A DNA stretch of 64,000 nucleotides, taken from a bacterium (lineage in GTDB: Bacteria > Hydrothermota > Tepidihabitantia > B3-TA06). This document shows, piece after piece, positions 3,310 to 46,791 of this stretch; position 1 is the stretch's first letter, and each line of letters opens with the position of its first letter. Under the pieces are notes generated by a model that ran no database searches, was not told the DNA's origin, and saw nothing but the letters and a program-made list of their open reading frames with translations. The position numbers were made by a program, and so were the translations under genes. The stretch lies in contig JAAYVC010000037.1 of assembly GCA_012517375.1 (NCBI GenBank), positions 3,485 through 67,484 on the forward strand, read 5' to 3'.

Positions 3310-3421
3310 TATACTTGACAACGCTCCGAGAAAGAGTATATTTCATCTATCCCCAATCGTCCCGTTCATCGGGAGTGCCAGGGTCAAGCTTTTAAAAATG
3401 GTGATTTATGACTGATATGCG

Positions 3422-3442
3422 TGTGGATAACTTTGTGGATAA
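3422..3442 (+). promoter_or_regulatory. Two tandem DnaA boxes (TGTGGATAA x2, reverse complement of TTATCCACA) immediately upstream of dnaA
   Basis: Exact 9-mer TGTGGATAA at 3422-3430 and 3434-3442. Position is 35-55 bp upstream of the dnaA GTG start. Confidence 0.6.
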
Positions 3443-3475
3443 GTTTTTTATTTCGATGTCCGTGGAGGAGAACAA

Positions 3476-4798
3476 GTGACTGAAGCGACGCTTTGGAACA
3501 ACGTACTGGAAAGGCTCAGGGCGCGAATACCCGAAGAGGGGTTCAACACCTGGTTCAAACCGACGCGCTTCGTCGAGAAGCGTGAGAACACGATACTTGT
3601 CGAGGTGCCGAATCCGTTCTTCGTGGAGTGGATTGAAGAGTACTACGGCAAAGCGCTGGCAGAGGCCCTGGCTGATCTCGACTCGGGCGGCTTAAGGGTC
3701 GCTTTTCAGGCGCGCAAGGTAGACCCAGGTGCGGCAAGGCCGAAGTTCGTTCGCAGACGCATCGTTTACGCCCAGGACGGTTCAAGGCTGCAGGAGCGCT
3801 ACACGTTCACGAACTTCGTGGTCGGCGAACACAACCGTTTTGCCCACGCCGCTGCCCTGGCAGTTGCCGAGGCGCCATCCGATGTCTACAATCCTTTGTT
3901 CATCTACGGGGGGGTCGGGCTTGGCAAGACCCACCTGGTGCAGGCGATAGGCAATTATCTCGTCAGGACAAGGCCGAAGCTGTCAGTGGCCTACATACCT
4001 GCCGAAACGCTGTTCATAGAACTCATTGACGCCGTTGAGAAGAACACCAGGATGGAGTTCAAGAACCGCTACCGCTCGAAGGACATACTTCTCATAGACG
4101 ACATTCATTTCCTGAGAGGGAAGGAGTCTCTCCAGGAGGAGATTTTCCACCTGTTCAATCACCTGTACGAGGGCGGAAAGCAGGTGGTGCTGACATCGGA
4201 CCGGCCGCCGCGCGAGATACCGACTCTAGAGGAACGACTCGCTTCACGCTTTGCCGGAGGTCTTGTAGTCGATATCCAGCCTCCCGACATAGAGACGAGG
4301 ATAGCGATCCTTCGCTCCAAGGCTGACACCGAGGGCCAGGTTCTTCCCCAGGACGTCGCATACTTCATAGCCTCACGCGTTCGCTCCAATATCCGCGAAC
4401 TCGAGGGCACGCTCATAAGGCTTCTTGCGCTCTCCTCGCTGACAGGACGTTCCCTTACGACGAATCTTGCCGAGGAGGTCCTTCACGAGCTTTTGAGGAA
4501 CAGGCCTAAGACCACGCCTGCAAGAATAGCCAAGCACGTTGCAAGAACCTTTAATATCTCTACCGAAGAGATGCTCTCGCGCAGCCGCACCGCTAATCTT
4601 GCGCTTGCAAGACAGTCCGCGATGTTCCTCATGCGCAAGATACTGGGACTTCCGCTTAAGGAGATAGGCCGCTTCTTCGGCGGCAAGGATCACACCACTG
4701 TCATTCACGCCATTGAAAAGGTTCGGCGGCTTACCGAGGAGGACGCCGAGTTCAAAGACCAGCTCTTCGGAATCGAACAGAGAATAAACCGGAGCTGA
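3476..4798 (+). CDS. dnaA: Chromosomal replication initiator protein DnaA
   Basis: 440 aa, GTG start with GGAGGAG SD. AAA+ Walker A GGVGLGKTHL. C-terminal DnaA box-binding domain (LSRSRTANLALARQSAMFLMRKILGLPLKEIGRFFGGKDHTTVIHA). Confidence 0.95.
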   Translation: MTEATLWNNVLERLRARIPEEGFNTWFKPTRFVEKRENTILVEVPNPFFVEWIEEYYGKALAEALADLDSGGLRVAFQARKVDPGAARPKFVRRRIVYAQDGSRLQERYTFTNFVVGEHNRFAHAAALAVAEAPSDVYNPLFIYGGVGLGKTHLVQAIGNYLVRTRPKLSVAYIPAETLFIELIDAVEKNTRMEFKNRYRSKDILLIDDIHFLRGKESLQEEIFHLFNHLYEGGKQVVLTSDRPPREIPTLEERLASRFAGGLVVDIQPPDIETRIAILRSKADTEGQVLPQDVAYFIASRVRSNIRELEGTLIRLLALSSLTGRSLTTNLAEEVLHELLRNRPKTTPARIAKHVARTFNISTEEMLSRSRTANLALARQSAMFLMRKILGLPLKEIGRFFGGKDHTTVIHAIEKVRRLTEEDAEFKDQLFGIEQRINRS

Positions 4799-30075: not shown

Positions 30076-30127
30076 GGGGACCCCGTTAACCCTCGGGGTC
30101 CCCACAAAGCTGCGGAGCAGCTTTGTG
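30076..30127 (+). terminator. Two consecutive perfect hairpins immediately after the btuB-like stop
   Basis: GGGGACCCCG-ttaaccct-CGGGGTCCCC (30076-30103) and CACAAAGCTGC-gga-GCAGCTTTGTG (30103-30127). No strong T-tract. Confidence 0.4.
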
Positions 30128-30129
30128 GG

Positions 30130-30203
30130 GTGACAAAAGCTGGTCAAAAGCTGGTCAAAAGTGGGACAAAAGCTGGTCAGAAGTTGGTCAAAACTTGGAC
30201 AAA
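30130..30203. repeat. 11-bp tandem repeat array, ~7 units, consensus TGGTCAAAAGC
   Basis: tgacaaaagc / tggtcaaaagc / tggtcaaaagt / gggacaaaagc / tggtcagaagt / tggtcaaaact / tggacaaa. Period 11 bp (one helical turn). Non-coding context. Confidence 0.7.
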
Positions 30204-39617: not shown

Positions 39618-40093
39618 CTGGCCTCCTTGCCGAATGCATACAGCCTGCGTGAAATTAAAGTTTAAGCCGTCTTTTCAAAAAGTCAAGCAGGATTTGCGCT
39701 GTAAGATCAGCAAAAAACGCGGATACGCGAACATCTGCATCCGCACCTTCTGCAGAAATCAAAGGATTTTCTATCGCCTTACGCTGGCCTCCAGATGTCG
39801 CCGCTATCTCATAAACGTGTAGGCATCGCGATAAAATGCGTTTGTCAGCGCGCCATCGCCCGGAACCCTGAAACCGTTGCATGATGATCTAAGGACTTGA
39901 ATATAAGGCCTTAGACTCATTAGTCGTTTATAAAAAGCGAGATTGACCTCCGGGGTCTTGACATACCCTAGTATTTTTCTATAATTAGCTTGATGATTTC
40001 AAAGAGAAGCGCAAGTCCCTTTAAAAGGTTTCAAAATCCATCGATATATGATGACGAGATTAATGGACTTAGCGATAAGCGCATATTAAAGCT

Positions 40094-40132
40094 TGACATG
40101 CGCCTTGACATGCCGTATATCCATCCTATACT
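40094..40132 (+). promoter_or_regulatory. dfx promoter region with tandem CTTGACATGC direct repeat; second TTGACA-16-TATACT
   Basis: CTTGACATGC at 40093-40102 and 40104-40113. TTGACA 40105-40110, 16-bp spacer, TATACT 40127-40132. SD AAAGGAGG before the ATG at 40203. Confidence 0.4.
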
Positions 40133-40202: not shown

Positions 40203-40586
40203 ATGGCTCAACACTCAAAGATATACAAGTGCGAGGAATGCGGAGACATGATCGAGGTCATAAAGGAAGGTTGCGGCAACTACACCTGCCACGGGCAACC
40301 CATGATGCTTCTGGTGGAGAACACCACCGACGCGGCAAAGGAGAAACACGTACCCGTCATCGAGAAGATCGCGTCGGGATACAAGGTCAAGATAGGCAGC
40401 GTGGCACATCCTATGGAAGAAAAACACTTTATAGAATGGGTTGAACTCTCCGACTCCGAGGGCCGTGTTTACCGCAAACAGCTCAGGCCGGGCGATGCGC
40501 CCGAGGCCGAGTTCCTGATGCCTGCCTCGTCCTCCGTCACCGCACGCGAACACTGCAACATTCACGGTCTCTGGAAAGGGGAATAA
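40203..40586 (+). CDS. dfx: Desulfoferrodoxin (2Fe superoxide reductase)
   Basis: 127 aa. N-terminal desulforedoxin-like Cys motif ([19 protein letters not shown]). C-terminal SOR centre residues ([25 protein letters not shown]). Confidence 0.85.
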
Positions 40587-40587
40587 G

Positions 40588-41142
40588 ATGATCTCGAAGA
40601 AGATAGAAGAAGGCTTCAACAAGCAGCTTAACGCCGAGCTTTACGCGGCGTACCTCTATTTCGCCATAGGAGCGTGGTTCGAGGAGCGCAACCTCGACGG
40701 TTTTGCACATTGGATGAAGGCTCAGGCGTTCGAGGAGACGAGCCATGCCATGCGCTTCTACAAGCATGTTCTGAACCGCGGCGGGCATCCCACGTTCTCG
40801 GCTATAGCAAAGCCCGAGGGCGCCTGGAACACGCCTCAAGAGGCGTTTGCTGCAGCATACGAGCACGAAGTAAAGGTCACGAAGATGATAAACGACCTCG
40901 TTGACCTTGCTCAGGCTGAAAAAGACAACGCCGCGCTGCGGGGAATCCTCGACTGGTTCGTAAACGAGCAAATCGAAGAAGAGGAGCAGACCATGGTCGC
41001 CGTGGACCGGCTCAAGATGCTCGGAGACGACAAGCAGGCGCTCTACCTCCTAGACAAGGAGTACGGTGCCCGGCCTCTTGTCACGACCGCTTTCATTATA
41101 AACCCCAACGCTGCCGGCGCTGCAGCCGACGCAGGAGCGTAA
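40588..41142 (+). CDS. ftn: Ferritin (non-haem bacterial ferritin)
   Basis: 184 aa. Ferritin diiron ligands (ELYAAYLY..EETSHAMRFYKHV..EHEVKVT..). Confidence 0.85.
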   Translation: MISKKIEEGFNKQLNAELYAAYLYFAIGAWFEERNLDGFAHWMKAQAFEETSHAMRFYKHVLNRGGHPTFSAIAKPEGAWNTPQEAFAAAYEHEVKVTKMINDLVDLAQAEKDNAALRGILDWFVNEQIEEEEQTMVAVDRLKMLGDDKQALYLLDKEYGARPLVTTAFIINPNAAGAAADAGA

Positions 41143-41143
41143 G

Positions 41144-41638
41144 ATGGGTATCAGCTTCAATGCGGAAGAGATACTCGGAATAGCGGTGCAGATAGAGCGC
41201 AACGGCCAGAAGTTCTACAAACAGGCGGCGTCCAACATCGCTAACGAAGAACACAAAAAGCTTCTTGAGGAGCTTGCCGCGATGGAAGTCGCGCACGAGA
41301 AATATTTTTCAGGGATGCTCAACTCTCTCTCCCCTGACGAGCGCGGCACCAAGGACTACGACCTCGATAACGAAGCCGCAGGATACCTCAAGAACGTGGC
41401 CGACGGCAACGTATTCGACTACCGCAAGGACCCAACAGAACTCCTCAAGGGTATCGAATCCATAGACGATATTCTCAGAACGGCAATCGGCATGGAGAAG
41501 GAATCGGTGGTCTTCTACTCAGGAATCAGGCAGATGGTCCCCGAGCATATGGGCTCGGAGCGCATCGACGAGATAATAAAAGAAGAGCTCTCGCACATCA
41601 GCCTCCTGTCCCGAGAGCTCATAGCCGTAGGGAAGTAA
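41144..41638 (+). CDS. Rubrerythrin-family ferritin-like diiron protein (no rubredoxin domain)
   Basis: 164 aa. Two ExxH motifs (EVAHE, EELSH) in a four-helix ferritin-like pattern. Confidence 0.65.
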   Translation: MGISFNAEEILGIAVQIERNGQKFYKQAASNIANEEHKKLLEELAAMEVAHEKYFSGMLNSLSPDERGTKDYDLDNEAAGYLKNVADGNVFDYRKDPTELLKGIESIDDILRTAIGMEKESVVFYSGIRQMVPEHMGSERIDEIIKEELSHISLLSRELIAVGK

Positions 41639-41725: not shown

Positions 41726-43228
41726 GTGAAACTAAGTCCCAAGACGAGAGTGGGCGAACTTCTTGACGCCTACCCGTTTCTCCTCGACTTCCTGCCTGAC
41801 TATAATAAACATTTTGAGAAGCTCCTTAACCCGGTGGCGCGCGCGACCATTGCGAAGGTCGCCACTCTGGAGATGGCCGCCCAGAACAACAATCTCGATT
41901 TGAAAAGGTTTCTTGAGGATTTAAGAACAGCGATACTCGAAAACACGGGCGAAGAGCTTGTAATCATGTCCGACGAAGAGCTGAGAGCGAGAGCAAAAAA
42001 GATAAAGTCCATTCTTGCCGAACTGCACGAGAAGGGCCCATCCTCACGAGAGTCGCTTGAGCGCCGTTTCGCGGAAGAGATAAAGGACATAACCCCGGGC
42101 GAGATTGGCGAGATAGAGCAGGAGCTCGTACGGGAAGGAATGACGCCCGAAGATATAACCTCCATGTGCGACCTTCACGTTGCCGTGATGCGCTCCGGTC
42201 TTGAATCGTCACCCGACATGCCTGCCGGACACCCCGTGCATACGGCAAGGCTTGAAAACCGCGAGTTCGAAAAGCTTGCAAGGACGCTCTCCGGGCTTGC
42301 AAGGGAACTGGGCAAGGCATCGCTTAAAGAAAAAGCGCCCGCGCTCGAAAAGACGCTTTCTTCGCTCAGCCTTGTTGAAAAGCACTACCTGAGGAAGGAG
42401 CACGAGCTGTTCCCGCGCCTTGAGAAACACGGCGTGACAGCTCCTCCTCAAGTGATGTGGGCCGTTCACGACCAGGTGCGCGCGCTATTAAAAGAAACGA
42501 AGGGATTGCTCGAAAAAACCAGTGTCAAAGAGTTTTCCGAGAAAGCGAGAAAACTTTCCGCAACAGTGCTCGATATGATATATAAAGAGGAGCAGATTCT
42601 TTTCCCTATGGCGCTTGAGCACCTGTCGTCCCAGGAGTGGCTCGAGATAAAGAGGGGGGAGGATGAGATCGGCTACAGCCTTGTAACCCCGGGCGCGGAT
42701 TGGAATCCTCAAACTTCCCCTGAGCCCGGCGCTCAAGACGGCTCAATAAAAAAAGATCTGGGAGAACAAGGAGAAACAATGGAGCTTAACGAGTTTGCAG
42801 AAAATCTCAAGAAAAATGCGAGACTGCCGCTCAGCGTCGGCGGTCTTACGCTTGAACAGATAGACCTCATGCTCAAAAATCTTCCCGTTGACATATCGTT
42901 CGTCGATGAGCACGACGAGCTTCGCTACTACTCCGACACGCCCGAACGCATCTTCACGCGCACGCCCGGAGTCATAGGCCGCAAGGTGCAAAACTGCCAT
43001 CCGCCCAAGAGCGTGCACGTGGTTCAAAAGATTATAGACGAATTCCGCAAGGGGACAAAAGATGTCGCCGAGTTCTGGATTGAGCTTTCAGGCAAGTTCA
43101 TCCATATACGCTACTTCGCAATGAGGGACAGTAATGGTCGCTACCGCGGCACCCTGGAGGTGTCGCAGGACGTGACAGGAATCCGCAAACTCGAGGGACA
43201 GAAAAGGCTTCTGGATTGGAAGGAATAG
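41726..43228 (+). CDS. DUF1858 / hemerythrin-like (HHE cation-binding) / PAS-like domain protein (DUF438 family)
   Basis: 500 aa. N-terminal DUF1858-like (MKLSPKTRVGELLDAYPFLLDFLPDYN). Central hemerythrin-like HxxxE/HxxxH-rich helices. C-terminal PAS-like region repeated in the next ORF. Confidence 0.6.
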   Translation: MKLSPKTRVGELLDAYPFLLDFLPDYNKHFEKLLNPVARATIAKVATLEMAAQNNNLDLKRFLEDLRTAILENTGEELVIMSDEELRARAKKIKSILAELHEKGPSSRESLERRFAEEIKDITPGEIGEIEQELVREGMTPEDITSMCDLHVAVMRSGLESSPDMPAGHPVHTARLENREFEKLARTLSGLARELGKASLKEKAPALEKTLSSLSLVEKHYLRKEHELFPRLEKHGVTAPPQVMWAVHDQVRALLKETKGLLEKTSVKEFSEKARKLSATVLDMIYKEEQILFPMALEHLSSQEWLEIKRGEDEIGYSLVTPGADWNPQTSPEPGAQDGSIKKDLGEQGETMELNEFAENLKKNARLPLSVGGLTLEQIDLMLKNLPVDISFVDEHDELRYYSDTPERIFTRTPGVIGRKVQNCHPPKSVHVVQKIIDEFRKGTKDVAEFWIELSGKFIHIRYFAMRDSNGRYRGTLEVSQDVTGIRKLEGQKRLLDWKE

Positions 43229-43680
43229 TGGACAAAGCCGCCTTAGACCTTGGTTCGGGAACGCTCACTCTCGAAGAGCTGAGAATGATGCTTCGCTCCC
43301 TGCCCCTCAATATCGACTACGTCGATGAGAATGACGCCTTTCGCTACTATTCCAACGGCGACAGGCTATTCAAGCTATCGACAGACGAGCTCGGCAAGAA
43401 CCTTGAGGAGTGTCATTCAGAAAAATCAATGCCAATGGTCAAGGAGATTACAGGCGCGTTCAGGAAAGGAAGAAACGAACCCTACAGGTTCGTTAACTTA
43501 AAAGAAGGCCGCTGGCTGGAAGTGCGGTATATCCCTTTACGTGATGAAAAGGGAGACTATAAAGGAATCCTTGAACTCTCTCAGGATATCACCGAGGCCT
43601 GCAACATCAAGACCCCGTATGTCCCGCCGGAGTTCGGGGAGCTCCTTGAGCAGTCAAGGAGGAACAATGAACACCCGTAA
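43216..43680 (+). CDS. PAS-like domain protein (paralog of the C-terminus of the upstream DUF438 protein)
   Basis: 154 aa. LTLEELRMMLRSLPLNIDYVDENDAFRYYS.. parallels LTLEQIDLMLKNLPVDISFVDEHDELRYYS.. of the preceding gene. 13-bp overlap. Confidence 0.5.
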   Translation: MEGIVDKAALDLGSGTLTLEELRMMLRSLPLNIDYVDENDAFRYYSNGDRLFKLSTDELGKNLEECHSEKSMPMVKEITGAFRKGRNEPYRFVNLKEGRWLEVRYIPLRDEKGDYKGILELSQDITEACNIKTPYVPPEFGELLEQSRRNNEHP

Positions 43681-43975
43681 CACCCGTAACACCCGTAACA
43701 CCCGTAACACCCGCAGCGCCAGCAGCGCCAGCAGCCCCAGCAGCCCCAGCAGCGCCGGTAGCGCCCGTAGCGCCCGCAGGGTTACCATTCCAGCTATAAG
43801 CTGCACCTACTGTTCCAGGCTCATCAAAAGAGAGCTTGAAACCATAGAGGGGGTCAAGGTAGTTGTCGTTAACCTGCCTTTGAGAGAGGTCGTTGTTGAA
43901 TGGCAGCCTCCCGCTACGTGGGAGGCAATTGTGCGAATGCTCAAGGAAATAGAGTATCCGCCGAAGGAGAACTGA
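43667..43975 (+). CDS. HMA-domain (CopZ-like) metallochaperone with N-terminal (NTR)5-(SAS/SPS/SAR)n low-complexity extension; CTYC metal motif
   Basis: Start at the ATG at 43667 (AAGGAGG upstream). The track ORF 43541-43975 extends 5' into the previous gene. HMA fold pattern IPAISCTYCSRLIKRELETIEGVKVVVVNL..VVEWQPPATWEAIVRMLKEIEYPP. Confidence 0.7.
   Translation: MNTRNTRNTRNTRNTRSASSASSPSSPSSAGSARSARRVTIPAISCTYCSRLIKRELETIEGVKVVVVNLPLREVVVEWQPPATWEAIVRMLKEIEYPPKEN
43670..43786 (+). repeat. In-frame 9-bp tandem repeats: (AACACCCGT)4-AACACCCGC followed by AGCGCCAGC/AGCCCCAGC/AGCGCCCGT variants (13 units)
   Basis: Read directly from the sequence. Encodes (NTR)5 SASSAS SPSSPS SAG SARSAR. The first unit overlaps the stop codon of the upstream gene. 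Confidence 0.85.
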
Positions 43976-43978
43976 TTT

Positions 43979-44185
43979 ATGGAAGAAAGAAAAATAAAGA
44001 TACCTGCAATCAGCTGTCATCACTGCAAGATGACCATAGAGCGCGCGCTTTCGGAGCTTGCGGGCATTCGCTCCGTCGAAGTCGATGAACAGGCAAAGAC
44101 CGCACTCATCGTCTGGGATGCCCCACTTACGTGGGAGCTGATAGCCCAGACACTTGCGGAGATTGGATATCCGCCCGAAGCATAG
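43979..44185 (+). CDS. copZ: HMA-domain copper chaperone (CopZ-like), CHHC motif
   Basis: 68 aa. IKIPAISCHHCKMTIERALSELAGIRSVEVDEQAKTALIVWDAPLTWELIAQTLAEIGYPP. Paralog of neighbours. Confidence 0.7.
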   Translation: MEERKIKIPAISCHHCKMTIERALSELAGIRSVEVDEQAKTALIVWDAPLTWELIAQTLAEIGYPPEA

Positions 44186-44206
44186 AAGATTACCGAGGAG
44201 GTAATT

Positions 44207-44419
44207 ATGGAAAAGAAGATATTCAAGGTGAAAAAAGTTGAAGGCTTCTCCACGTACCTTGAACTCAAGAACGAATTCTCTAAGATAGAAGGATTCAAGG
44301 ACGTAAAGGTCGATATCACGACAAAACAGATAAGGGTTTTATGGGACGCTCCGGCGACATGGAACGATTTCGAGCTTGAGCTGACACGGATGGGTTACCA
44401 GCCTGTCTTTTTAGATTGA
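44207..44419 (+). CDS. HMA-like domain protein lacking metal-binding cysteines (degenerate CopZ paralog)
   Basis: 70 aa. Same fold pattern (..VDITTKQIRVLWDAPATWNDFELELTRMGYQP) but the CxxC position reads EGFSTYLE. SD GAGGAGG. Confidence 0.55.
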   Translation: MEKKIFKVKKVEGFSTYLELKNEFSKIEGFKDVKVDITTKQIRVLWDAPATWNDFELELTRMGYQPVFLD

Positions 44420-44487
44420 AGGACTTCGTAAGAAGAGGAGCCTTGAACCGAAGGAAGAGTGGAAGGACAGGGAATGAATAGTAAAAT

Positions 44488-46791
44488 GTGAAAGAAATGA
44501 AGTTGGATAAAAAGAATCCGGATAATCGGGCAATGGGAGAGAAAGTTCCAGGCAAAACAGAAACCGTGAAGGAGCGCATTGAACTACCCATTATAGGTAT
44601 GACGTGCGCCAACTGTGTGCTTACAATCGAGCGTAATCTTCGAAAAAAAGTTCCCGGCTTAATATCCGCCACAGTCAACCTTGCCACCCAACGAGCATCG
44701 GTCGAGTTCGATCCCCGACTCGCGAGCCCGAAACTCATTGCAGAAGTCATAGATAGTGCGGGTTACAAGGCGATACTTCCGACCGAGAAATCCAGGGACG
44801 AGGAAGAGCGCGCCCGCGACAGGGAAGAAAGAAAGGAGAGGCAGGCTTTCTGGACAGGCGTTGCCTTTGCCGCTCCGCTCTTCGTCCTGAGCATGCTTCG
44901 CGATTTCGGGGCGCTGGGGCACTGGTCGCACGCATTATGGTTTAACTGGGTTTTCCTCGGCCTTGCTTTGCCTGTTCAGTTCTATACGGGTTTTGGTTTC
45001 TACAAAGGAGGGTTTAAGTCGCTGCGTTCGGGTTCTGCGAATATGGACGTCCTCGTGGCCATGGGTTCCTCGGTCGCGTTCATCTACTCCGCCGCCGTCA
45101 CCATCTTTCCCCAGGCAGGTAATCACGTTTACTTCGAGACCTCGGCTTTAATAATCACTCTCATCAAGCTCGGCAAGATGCTCGAGGCACGAGCTAAGGG
45201 TCGCGCTTCAGGGGCTATCCGCAAGCTCATGGATCTGGCTCCGAAGGTTGCGCACATTGTGATGTCCGACGGACTCGAACGCGAGGTGCCGGCAGAGCAG
45301 GTCAGGCCAGGAGATATAGTTGTTGTCAGACCTGGAGAGCGCATACCGGTGGACGGCGAGGTGGTATCGGGTTCATCCTCGGTCGATGAAAGCATGCTTA
45401 CCGGCGAGTCAATGCCCCAGGACAAGAACGTTGGAGCAAAGGTGTTCGGAGCGACTATCAATCTGGAGGGCCTCGTAAAAATCAAAGCCGAAAGCATCGG
45501 CTCCGATACGGCTCTTGCGCAAATCGTCAGGCTTGTTCTGGCCGCTCAGGCTTCAAGGGCGCCAATCCAGAGGCTGGCGGACAGGGTTTCAGCCGTATTC
45601 GTCCCGGTCATAATCGCAACGGCCTTCGTTACCTTTATCCTGTGGTGGCTCGCAGGAGGCCAGTTCGCGCCTGCCATGCTGCGCCTTGTTGCCGTTCTCG
45701 TTATAGCGTGCCCCTGCGCCCTCGGCCTCGCCACGCCAACGGCCATAATGGTCGGAACCGGCCGAGGAGCCGGAATGGGCATACTCTTCAAGTCGAGTGA
45801 GGTGCTGGAGACCGTTCACAAACTCGATATCGTCATGTTCGATAAGACGGGCACAATCACAGAGGGCAAGCCAGTTCTTACGGACTGGATTCCGCTTGAC
45901 TCCGGCGATGAAGGTCTTGTTTTAGCCGCATCCGCCGAGCAGGGCTCCGAGCACCCGATTGCAAAAGCGGTTGTCGAGGGAGCCCGTGCAAGAGGCTTGC
46001 ATCTCAAGGAGCCTCAGGATTTCAAGGCGGAACCAGGATTCGGGATAAAGGCTCTAATCGCGGACAGGAAGGTGCGCGTGGGCAAGCGCGCCTGGTTCGA
46101 GCTGAGTGAGGATGCAAAGGAAATGTCGGACGAACTTGCCTCTCTGGGCAAGACGGTCATGATCGCCGAGATAGACGGTCGAATCGCCGGGCTTCTTGCC
46201 GTAGCAGACTCGGAGAAGAAAACCTCAAGGCAGGCTATTTCGGCCCTGCACGCCCTCGGTCTCAAGACCGTTATGCTCACAGGCGACAGCCGCGAGGCTG
46301 CCCATGCAATAGCCTCAAAGGTAGGGATAGACGAAGTGAGGGCCGGCGTTCTGCCCGGTGACAAGGAAAGACTCGTGCACGAAGAACTGGATAAGGGAAG
46401 GAAGGTTGCCATGGTCGGAGACGGGATTAACGACGCGCCTGCGCTAACTCGAGCCGACGTAGGCATAGCGATAGGCACAGGGTCGGATATCGCCTTGGAG
46501 GCATCTGATGTTACGCTTGTGAAGGGCGACCTCCGGGATGTCGTGCGGGCGATAGCACTTTCCAAAGCCACCATGAGCGCCATAAGGCAGAACCTTTTCT
46601 GGGCCTTCTTTTACAACATCCTCCTCGTTCCCGTTGCTGCGGGCGCGCTGCACTGGTTCGCGTGGCTGCCATCCCTAATACGCGACCTGCATCCCGTGCT
46701 TGCTGCCGCGGCAATGGCATTCTCCTCCGTCACGGTAGTACTGAACAGCCTCAGACTCTCAAGAAAGAAGGTAGAGTATGAACCACAATGA
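44488..46791 (+). CDS. copA: Copper-translocating P1B-type ATPase
   Basis: 767 aa. N-terminal [14 protein letters not shown] (ACPCALG). [13 protein letters not shown]. Eight TM pattern. Confidence 0.9.

Follow-up and report, generated by a model that had tools for sequence, protein, structure and literature searches.

Three HMA-fold genes ahead of copA in an uncultured bacterium: a polymorphic in-frame repeat tract in the first and a conserved cysteine-less protein in the third

What could three short genes for HMA-fold proteins do in a row ahead of the gene of a copper pump, when the first begins with a run of 9-bp repeats and the third has no metal-binding cysteine? The question is raised by a stretch of 64,000 nucleotides (here called the window) from an uncultured bacterium. 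Among genomes, its nearest relative is a metagenome-assembled genome of the candidate division WOR-3. An earlier note on this DNA had described, at 43667-44419 on the + strand, three HMA-type paralogs ahead of copA with the loops CTYC, CHHC and no cysteine. The open reading frame (ORF) list and its translations give the same coordinates, and Pfam, the alignment and the predicted folds agree with the description. We refer to the three as HMA1, HMA2 and HMA3. They are variants of the HMA/CopZ family with a CsoZ-like, Cys-less member, and the repeat is a coding variable-number tandem repeat (VNTR); the locus is not a new kind of system.

43667-43975, + strand, HMA1, 102 amino acids (aa), Pfam HMA, metal loop ISCTYC
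43670-43777, + strand, coding minisatellite of 12 in-frame 9-bp units at the 5′ end of HMA1 (Tandem Repeats Finder and reading of the sequence)
43979-44185, + strand, HMA2, 68 aa, Pfam HMA, metal loop ISCHHC
44207-44419, + strand, HMA3, 70 aa, VEGFSTYLE replacing the Cys loop (alignment, CsoZ profile and predicted fold)
44488-46791, + strand, CopA, P1B-1 Cu(I)-type ATPase (gene-caller start at 44533, 752 aa)

A separate Shine-Dalgarno sequence precedes each of the three small genes, with AGGAGG 4 nt from the ATG at 43667, AAGGAG 9 nt from that at 43979 and GAGGAGG 6 nt from that at 44207.

The repeat tract fills the 108 nt between the ATG of HMA1 and AGGGTTACC, which makes exactly 12 units and not the 13 previously counted. 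In order, the units are AACACCCGT (four copies), AACACCCGC, AGCGCCAGC (two copies), AGCCCCAGC (two copies), AGCGCCGGT, AGCGCCCGT and AGCGCCCGC, and they encode (NTR)5(SAS)2(SPS)2SAG(SAR)2, the peptide formula that the earlier note had given. Tandem Repeats Finder reported 4.9 copies of AACACCCGT with 100% match at 43670-43713 (score 88) and 7.4 copies of period 9 with 89% match at 43713-43779 (score 85), in agreement with a tail made of in-frame 9-bp units. The exact 9-mer AACACCCGT is present in 4 copies against 0.25 expected, a number reached in 0 of 100 shuffles. Since the unit variants AACACCCGC, AGCACCCGC, AGCGCCCGC, AGCGCCGGT, AGCGCCAGC and AGCCCCAGC form a mutational series, we consider the whole tract as one minisatellite with diverged units. 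An overlap with the end of the upstream PAS gene had also been noticed, and the stop codon of that gene (TAA, 43678-43680) indeed arises where repeat units 1 and 2 meet. In a related contig with ~88% nucleotide identity (L028, JGI 3300040736) the PAS gene ends earlier, at a TAG; the overlap is thus due to a TAG/CAG difference and is not a designed feature.

Two other readings of the tract were set aside. On the - strand, an ORF at 43607-44023 reads it as a collagen-like G-x-x run (GATGATGAAGAAG...GVTGVTGV), which was treated as spurious because in L028 the - strand has no ORF of at least 40 aa over the tract, and because the sense frame is conserved. The third reading frame gives (TPV)n(APA)n, with no ORF context.

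Contigs from many independent sequencing runs were gathered by exact-protein look-ups of the neighbouring genes. Their flanks were 99.5-100% identical to the window, with zero indels, and the variation was confined to the tract. At least five tract alleles were found, having 9, 11 and 12 units on contigs spanning the tract and at least 10 and at least 15 units on truncated contigs, and the order of the units differs among them. They are given below with the units as encoded tripeptides.

ENA k127 contig, 12 units, 100% identical to the window
L009, L019, L021 and L038, 9 units, NTR2 and then the 3′ part as in the window
L020, 11 units, NTR2 STS SAS SPS SAG2 SAS STG2 STR
L001 and L002, at least 10 units, ...NTR3 SAS2 SAG2 STG2 STR
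L003, at least 15 units

All observed alleles are in frame and keep the pattern [N/S]-[T/A/P]-[R/S/G]. Alleles of the tract are also represented by separate database protein entries of 93 aa and 99 aa, with the 93-aa form found on 23 contigs, and the allele with two NTR units was recovered from five separate runs. DNA-pattern scans of metagenome contigs for further tract alleles found none. Many of the Logan contigs, assembled at k=31, end inside the perfect AACACCCGT run, as is expected at this k. As the short allele at k=31 needs reads that bridge both unique flanks, and as the imperfect 3′ half of the tract varies too, the polymorphism is real. The tail length, which the earlier note had supposed to be hypervariable, does differ in unit number across independent assemblies of near-identical strains; the assembly artefact that the same note had allowed for does not account for this, given also the k127 contig identical to the window.

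In L028 the tract has only four degenerate units (NTR NTS NTR NTR), and the WOR-3 relative L005, at ~70% protein identity, has a 70-aa HMA1 without the tail. No such repeat tail was found in the HMA1 orthologs of two further contigs (L042 and L043), nor in any of 43 other family members examined, whose longer N-termini look like mis-called starts or other domains. On these comparisons the tract is young, and the tail is found only in this species and one close relative. With bacterial coding VNTRs, or minisatellites, it shares the head-to-tail units, a unit length that is a multiple of 3 and the polymorphism in copy number and unit order between near-identical strains; the repeats are above chance, and copy number differs between close genomes with conserved flanks. 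Known adaptive VNTRs are mostly in surface or secreted proteins, or act as on/off switches, whereas HMA1 is a small, presumably cytoplasmic metallochaperone-like protein at which the length and charge of a tail vary and not the expression state. PMC3315296 describes simple repeats within coding sequences of prokaryotes as indel hotspots.

HMA1 itself scored 38.1 bits with Pfam HMA (PF00403, gathering threshold 24.8), and the CxxC of ISCTYC is in the loop between beta strand 1 and alpha helix 1. Its N-terminus is a 37-residue low-complexity stretch, formed by the initiator Met and 36 repeat-encoded residues, in which only N, T, R, S, A, P and G are used and no metal ligand is present. In the AlphaFold2 model, residues 1-33 mostly have a predicted local distance difference test (pLDDT) score below 50 and the core is folded; residues 35-94 are predicted to follow the HMA order of elements, with the last strand not called. 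The computed charge of the tail is ~ +6.5, and the alleles differ in the charge of the whole protein (+6.5, +3.5 or +2.5). This Arg/Ser-rich and ligand-free extension is predicted to be intrinsically disordered, and its tryptic peptide would be SASSASSPSSPSSAGSAR, with allelic forms. A twin-arginine (Tat) or general secretory (Sec) signal peptide in the Arg-rich tail was rejected by inspection, as there is no hydrophobic segment and the tail runs straight into beta strand 1.

No in-frame ATG, GTG or TTG is present between 43667 and the first beta strand, and the AGGAGG of HMA1 (43657-43662) is conserved in L028. Around this Shine-Dalgarno sequence a hairpin was predicted inside the end of the PAS_10 gene.

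43642-43661, + strand, hairpin with an 8-bp stem, CUCCUUGA-GCAG-UCAAGGAG (-17.3 kcal/mol, z -3.4)

The hairpin pairs most of the Shine-Dalgarno sequence with PAS codons, and its stem sequence is identical in L028. Because of this pairing, translation of HMA1 is probably coupled, perhaps obligatorily, to that of the upstream PAS gene. Folding of the 9-, 11- and 12-unit alleles predicted the hairpin each time, and the accessibility of the Shine-Dalgarno sequence and of the AUG was unchanged; control of translation initiation by tract length was thus rejected.

We propose that the 5′ end of HMA1 acquired the minisatellite in this species and one close relative, and that the tract would gain, lose and reshuffle whole units by replication slippage or unequal recombination. 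In natural populations the tails have at least 9 to 15 units, and the frame is always kept. The tail is most likely tolerated and near-neutral, at most modulating charge-dependent contacts with partners or stability. Perhaps it is instead a selected tuning knob, similar to a contingency locus, at which the number of units would set the length and charge of a disordered arm and, with it, the docking of HMA1 to CopA, the membrane or another HMA protein. This would fit with the presence of at least five alleles among strains whose flanks differ by no more than 0.5%, with the span of the allelic net charge from +2.5 to +6.5, with the common frame and residue pattern of all alleles, and with a tract directly after the start codon of a gene otherwise under purifying selection. 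However, a 9-bp unit preserves the frame automatically, the tail has neither metal ligands nor predicted structure, the L005, L042 and L043 orthologs do without it, and predicted Shine-Dalgarno accessibility is equal in all alleles. There is also no signal peptide, so the usual setting of such loci, surface proteins under host or phage pressure, does not apply. We consider a selected tuning knob unlikely. The repeat tail, in any case, is a natural example of a polymorphic in-frame minisatellite in an uncultured bacterium that can be detected from public assemblies alone. It could mark strains, it is an example of the breaks that such tracts cause in k=31 assemblies, and it is usable for testing whether disordered tails of chaperones matter.

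The loops CTYC, CHHC and none had been taken as a progressive loss of the CxxC. They belong rather to three distinct old types that recur together in divergent lineages: a CxYC type with an NLPLxEV motif, a CxHC type and a Cys-less type with G-x-KDVKVDITTK. Outside the window they were found in the following orders.

L005, WOR-3: CAYC, CNHC, Cys-less, copA
L043, not placed taxonomically: DUF438 protein, CSYC, CNHC, Cys-less and, in the position of copA, a gene cut by the contig end
L030, Stahlbacteria: CHHC, Cys-less, copA
L006, TA06: one HMA gene (loop not read), Cys-less, copA
L042 (GCA_014729155.1, 1639-2646), not placed taxonomically: CIYC, Cys-less and the gene of an LMWPc protein (an ArsC-like low-molecular-weight phosphatase/reductase), with no copA there; adjoins a divergent extracytoplasmic function (ECF) sigma/anti-sigma pair

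The ratio of nonsynonymous to synonymous substitution rates (dN/dS) between the window and L028 was 0.14 for the HMA1 core, 0.21 for HMA2 and 0.15 for HMA3, and for HMA3 between L028 and L005 it was 0.07. Judged by these ratios and by its orthologs in divergent lineages, the Cys-less gene is conserved and under purifying selection, and the sequence bears no sign of the pseudogene that the earlier note had considered for it. In L042, the arrangement hints that the HMA pair is linked to LMWPc at least as tightly as to CopA.

All HMA1-type orthologs in L005, L028, L042 and L043 have Tyr before the second Cys position (x-x-Y-C), and they share the NLPLxEV motif. In L028 (102-338) the loop of HMA1 is ISSAYC, with Ser for the first Cys of the CxxC, whereas CHHC is retained in HMA2 of the same contig; strict conservation thus does not extend to the metal site of the CxYC paralog.

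HMA2 is the most ordinary of the three. It scored 52.7 bits with PF00403, against the same gathering threshold of 24.8, its CxxC is in the loop between beta strand 1 and alpha helix 1, and CxHC is the form found in most of the CopZ-type relatives compared. Its sequence matches in PDB are the metal-binding domains of ATP7B, CopP and CopZ. With the NCBIfam CopZ models (TIGR00003, NF033794, NF033795 and NF047957, cut-offs 62-95 bits), HMA2 scored 42-44 bits and HMA1 at best 30, so that both are CopZ-like by architecture and context and not members under these models. In common with the CopZ/CopP chaperones (PF00403; TIGR00003) there are the ~68-aa length, the beta-alpha-beta-beta-alpha-beta fold, the CxHC in HMA2 and a gene position directly upstream of a P1B-1 CopA. 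Besides their sub-threshold scores, the window proteins differ in belonging to a subgroup with W-x2-P-x-[TS]-W / EI-x-YPP; HMA1 further differs by Tyr for the loop His and by the repeat tail, and HMA3 by the absence of ligands.

HMA3 has no Cys or His in the whole protein, and VEGFSTY is found where a CxxC-bearing protein has ISCxxC. It can be aligned with HMA1 and HMA2. No Pfam family matched 44207-44416 at E <= 0.01, PF00403 included, though some orthologs with 70% identity carry a precomputed PF00403 match. The AlphaFold model of HMA3 has a pLDDT of 78 and a predicted beta-alpha-beta-beta-alpha-beta order (E2-10, H17-25, E30-36, E41-46, H52-61 and E64-67). In a Foldseek search of PDB, the top 20 were all HMA domains except for chains of SSo6206. 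The best structure match was 6ff1, named "CsoZ metallochaperone" (template modelling score 0.77, 26% identity), followed by CopZ, ATP7B and CopP domains, and 6ff1 was also the best PDB match by sequence (E 0.013).

The orthologs of HMA3, at 39-70% identity, keep the full length, an own Shine-Dalgarno sequence and the fold. Their loops read LDGYSSI, IGGHYSL, ISGHYSI and MGGLASL. There are 27 invariant positions, including G-x-KDVKVDITTKQ-x-R-x2-W-x2-PA-x-W, and the only one of them that is a Cys, His or Met is the initiator Met. An exhaustive HMMER search with an HMA3 profile gave 124 representatives at E <= 1e-3, three of them at E <= 1e-10. The two closest matches (P0010 and P0011) are also Cys-less, and at greater distance a few Cys-less forms occur interspersed with CxxC-bearing proteins of the W-x2-P-x-[TS]-W subgroup. 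The earlier note had suggested that the series could diversify metal specificity; for the Cys-less member this appears unlikely, because its orthologs have no conserved Cys, His or Met.

CsoZ (6ff1, NF047536), which carries the name of a copper-homeostasis protein and is the best sequence and structure match of HMA3, shares with it a single-domain HMA fold of ~69 aa and the lack of the CxxC cysteines. In the alignment, CsoZ of Staphylococcus (S. aureus, S. argenteus and others) has GIETxEQ/GIETEEQV where HMA2 has ISCHHC and HMA3 VEGFSTY. However, HMA3 scored 35.1 bits with the CsoZ model (E 1.3e-8) against a cut-off of 77, the two are only 22-26% identical, and HMA3 has an invariant KDVKVDITTKQ block of its own. 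It also lies between copZ-like genes and copA, with no csoR beside it among the neighbouring ORFs scanned with Pfam. By cut-off, identity and gene context, HMA3 looks like CsoZ without being a member of that family. A literature search on CsoZ and Cys-less CopZ paralogs found no informative account of their function in the papers that could be searched.

Cys-less HMA proteins beside copper genes are already known from Staphylococcus CsoZ. Here a second Cys-less lineage is seen, unrelated to it and strongly conserved, which argues for a true function of ligand-free chaperone folds, probably in protein-protein contact. Its members always come with a Cys-type HMA protein and are usually placed ahead of CopA, and the lineage makes a compact three-gene test system.

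CopA scored 600.5 bits with NCBIfam TIGR01511 (cut-off 397), and its translation has one N-terminal HMA domain with GMTCANC, the transmembrane motifs CPC (ACPCALG), YN (FFYN) and MxxSS (MAFSS), and DKTGT; the family score and the motifs point to a Cu(I) pump. It is an ordinary P1B-1 Cu(I)-exporting ATPase with nothing notable that differs, and serves here as the context of the small genes. These, in turn, are part of a longer string of genes.

39958-39985, + strand, sigma-70-like promoter match upstream of dfx (TTGACA-16-TATAAT, 12/12, consensus scan)
40105-40132, + strand, second sigma-70-like promoter match upstream of dfx (11/12, consensus scan)
40203-40586, + strand, desulfoferrodoxin (dfx), Pfam
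40588-41142, + strand, ferritin, Pfam
41144-41638, + strand, rubrerythrin-like protein, Pfam
41726-43228, + strand, DUF1858-DUF438-hemerythrin-PAS_10 protein, 500 aa, Pfam; candidate O2/redox/metal sensor
43216-43680, + strand, stand-alone PAS_10 gene, 154 aa, Pfam; a separate PAS gene is absent from L005
46788-47354, + strand, LMWPc/ArsC-like low-molecular-weight phosphatase/reductase, Pfam; overlaps the stop codon of copA

The order of dfx, ferritin and rubrerythrin, which forms the oxidative-stress head of the string, is also found in L005, L006 and L030. The promoter matches ahead of dfx are likely the start of the operon carrying the HMA genes, as judged by consensus; from dfx to LMWPc the same scan, which is not evidence of function, found no stronger match.

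We regard as probable, with some reserve, that the locus is a Cu(I) module within an oxidative-stress operon. Three HMA-fold proteins and a P1B-1 CopA would make up a cytoplasmic Cu(I)-handling module, placed in a string of dfx, ferritin, rubrerythrin and DUF438-hemerythrin-PAS genes, with copper as the metal that we infer. HMA2 (CxHC) would be an ordinary CopZ-type Cu(I) chaperone feeding CopA, and HMA1 (CxYC) a second thiol-type paralog with an altered metal loop and the near-neutral, slippage-prone tail. HMA3 would have kept the ferredoxin-like HMA fold under purifying selection and lost every canonical ligand long ago. Since the fold is kept without the ligands, HMA3 most likely works through protein-protein contacts, and may be an adaptor, a regulator or a decoy that binds the other HMA proteins or the metal-binding domain of CopA.

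Several points weigh against this. All three proteins score below the curated cut-offs of the CopZ and CsoZ models. A Pfam scan of neighbouring ORFs found no copper-sensing regulator (CsoR, CueR or CopY). The HMA pair of L042 has LMWPc behind it and copA is absent from that place, so the paralogs may serve something other than delivery to CopA. The near-neutrality of the tail is our assumption, and the allelic differences in Arg content could be selected. The counts of NTR units are also biased, since k=31 contigs break within runs of at least 3 perfect units, which makes the short allele over-represented among the spanning contigs.

Some of these points would suit a different role, at which the HMA proteins would join the LMWPc/ArsC-like protein, the DUF438-hemerythrin-PAS sensor and the ECF sigma/anti-sigma pair of relatives in a response to redox/thiol stress or to metalloids, with CopA as an optional neighbour. 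The CxYC and Cys-less pair of L042 stands beside such a sigma/anti-sigma pair, LMWPc accompanies the module in the window, L005, L006 and L042, the module is always among dfx, ferritin and rubrerythrin genes, and a copper regulator is missing from the neighbouring ORFs scanned; a CsoR-type gene was not found in the contexts of L005, L006 and L042 either. On the other side, a P1B-1 ATPase is immediately downstream in the window, L005, L006 and L030, and a gene cut by the contig end takes that place in L028 and L043. The CxHC loop of HMA2 is as in most CopZ-type relatives, with CopZ, CopP and ATP7B domains as best matches. Moreover, the contig of L042 is only 8.8 kb, and copA could lie elsewhere in that genome. 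We find a redox or metalloid role doubtful and keep to Cu(I) handling.

A bolder reading, which we hold to be quite improbable, is that the three HMA types are an undescribed three-component chaperone system specific to WOR-3, TA06 and Stahlbacteria, in which the Cys-less member would gate or direct the hand-off of the metal, and the minisatellite of HMA1 would, in this species, be a selected and rapidly evolving charge "dial". If true, copper handling would be diversified within populations by a contingency locus in the gene of a cytoplasmic protein of metal homeostasis. Current understanding would change only if a phenotype were tied to the tail or to the Cys-less paralog.

That the tract is an artefact of assembly or annotation, or is untranslated, with a wrong or collapsed count or a start of HMA1 further downstream, is highly improbable and largely refuted: most Logan contigs do break inside the AACACCCGT run, and repeats are a known cause of assembly errors according to PMC6868369, but the perfect run of 44 nt is far below the k=127 of the identical ENA contig, the k=31 allele with two NTR units (five separate runs, its 93-aa product on 23 contigs) needs flank-joining reads, the 3′ half differs between samples with no long perfect repeat in it, and HMA1 has no in-frame start before its core and a strong AGGAGG 4 nt before the ATG that L028 conserves. 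Equally hard to credit, and largely refuted too, is a decaying duplicate in HMA3 (possibly also HMA1) with CTYC, CHHC and none as a record of ongoing pseudogenisation, for which the missing Pfam match and cysteines of HMA3 and the lost first Cys of HMA1 in L028 could be cited, whereas the HMA3 orthologs keep their length, Shine-Dalgarno sequence, fold and 27-column invariant set, dN/dS is 0.15 and 0.07 in the two comparisons, the position between a Cys-type HMA gene and copA or LMWPc is conserved in WOR-3, TA06 and Stahlbacteria, and the model is confident (pLDDT 78).

As for the genes upstream, a DUF438-hemerythrin-PAS protein precedes the HMA genes in L005, L006 and L043, and L042 has neither this nor a PAS_10 gene. 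In L030 (Stahlbacteria), a stand-alone 140-aa PAS_10 gene (3357-3779) is ahead of the HMA genes without the full DUF438-hemerythrin protein. The constant companion of the HMA genes appears to be this PAS_10 unit. A recent duplication of the C-terminal part of the 500-aa protein was considered as the source of the 154-aa PAS gene and rejected, as the two PAS_10 domains seem, by eye, too divergent. In L025 and L026 (1512-3013; SRR19361207 and SRR35116082), the DUF1858-DUF438-hemerythrin-PAS_10 gene is called as two ORFs (78 + 420 aa), with a 1-nt indel relative to the window; this is either a frameshifted gene or a sequencing error common to the two samples. Downstream, a Y1 (IS200/IS605-type) transposase gene, absent from the window, lies between copA and LMWPc in L005 (8922-9476) and L006 (8688-9242).

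No RNA family of Rfam matched the region 43300-44700 at E <= 1. Elsewhere in the window, in-frame 9-bp tandem repeats, GCGCGGGTA in 2.6 copies and GCGAGGAGG in 2.2 copies, were also seen at 2758-2797 inside the HypF carbamoyltransferase gene. At 30085-30203, just 3′ of a TonB-dependent receptor gene, there are two long GC-rich inverted repeats and, after them, an 11-bp tandem array of CAAAAGCTGGT in ~6 copies (also scored with a period of 33 bp), which extends into the beginning of a 102-aa ORF. This region is possibly a terminator plus a regulatory repeat.

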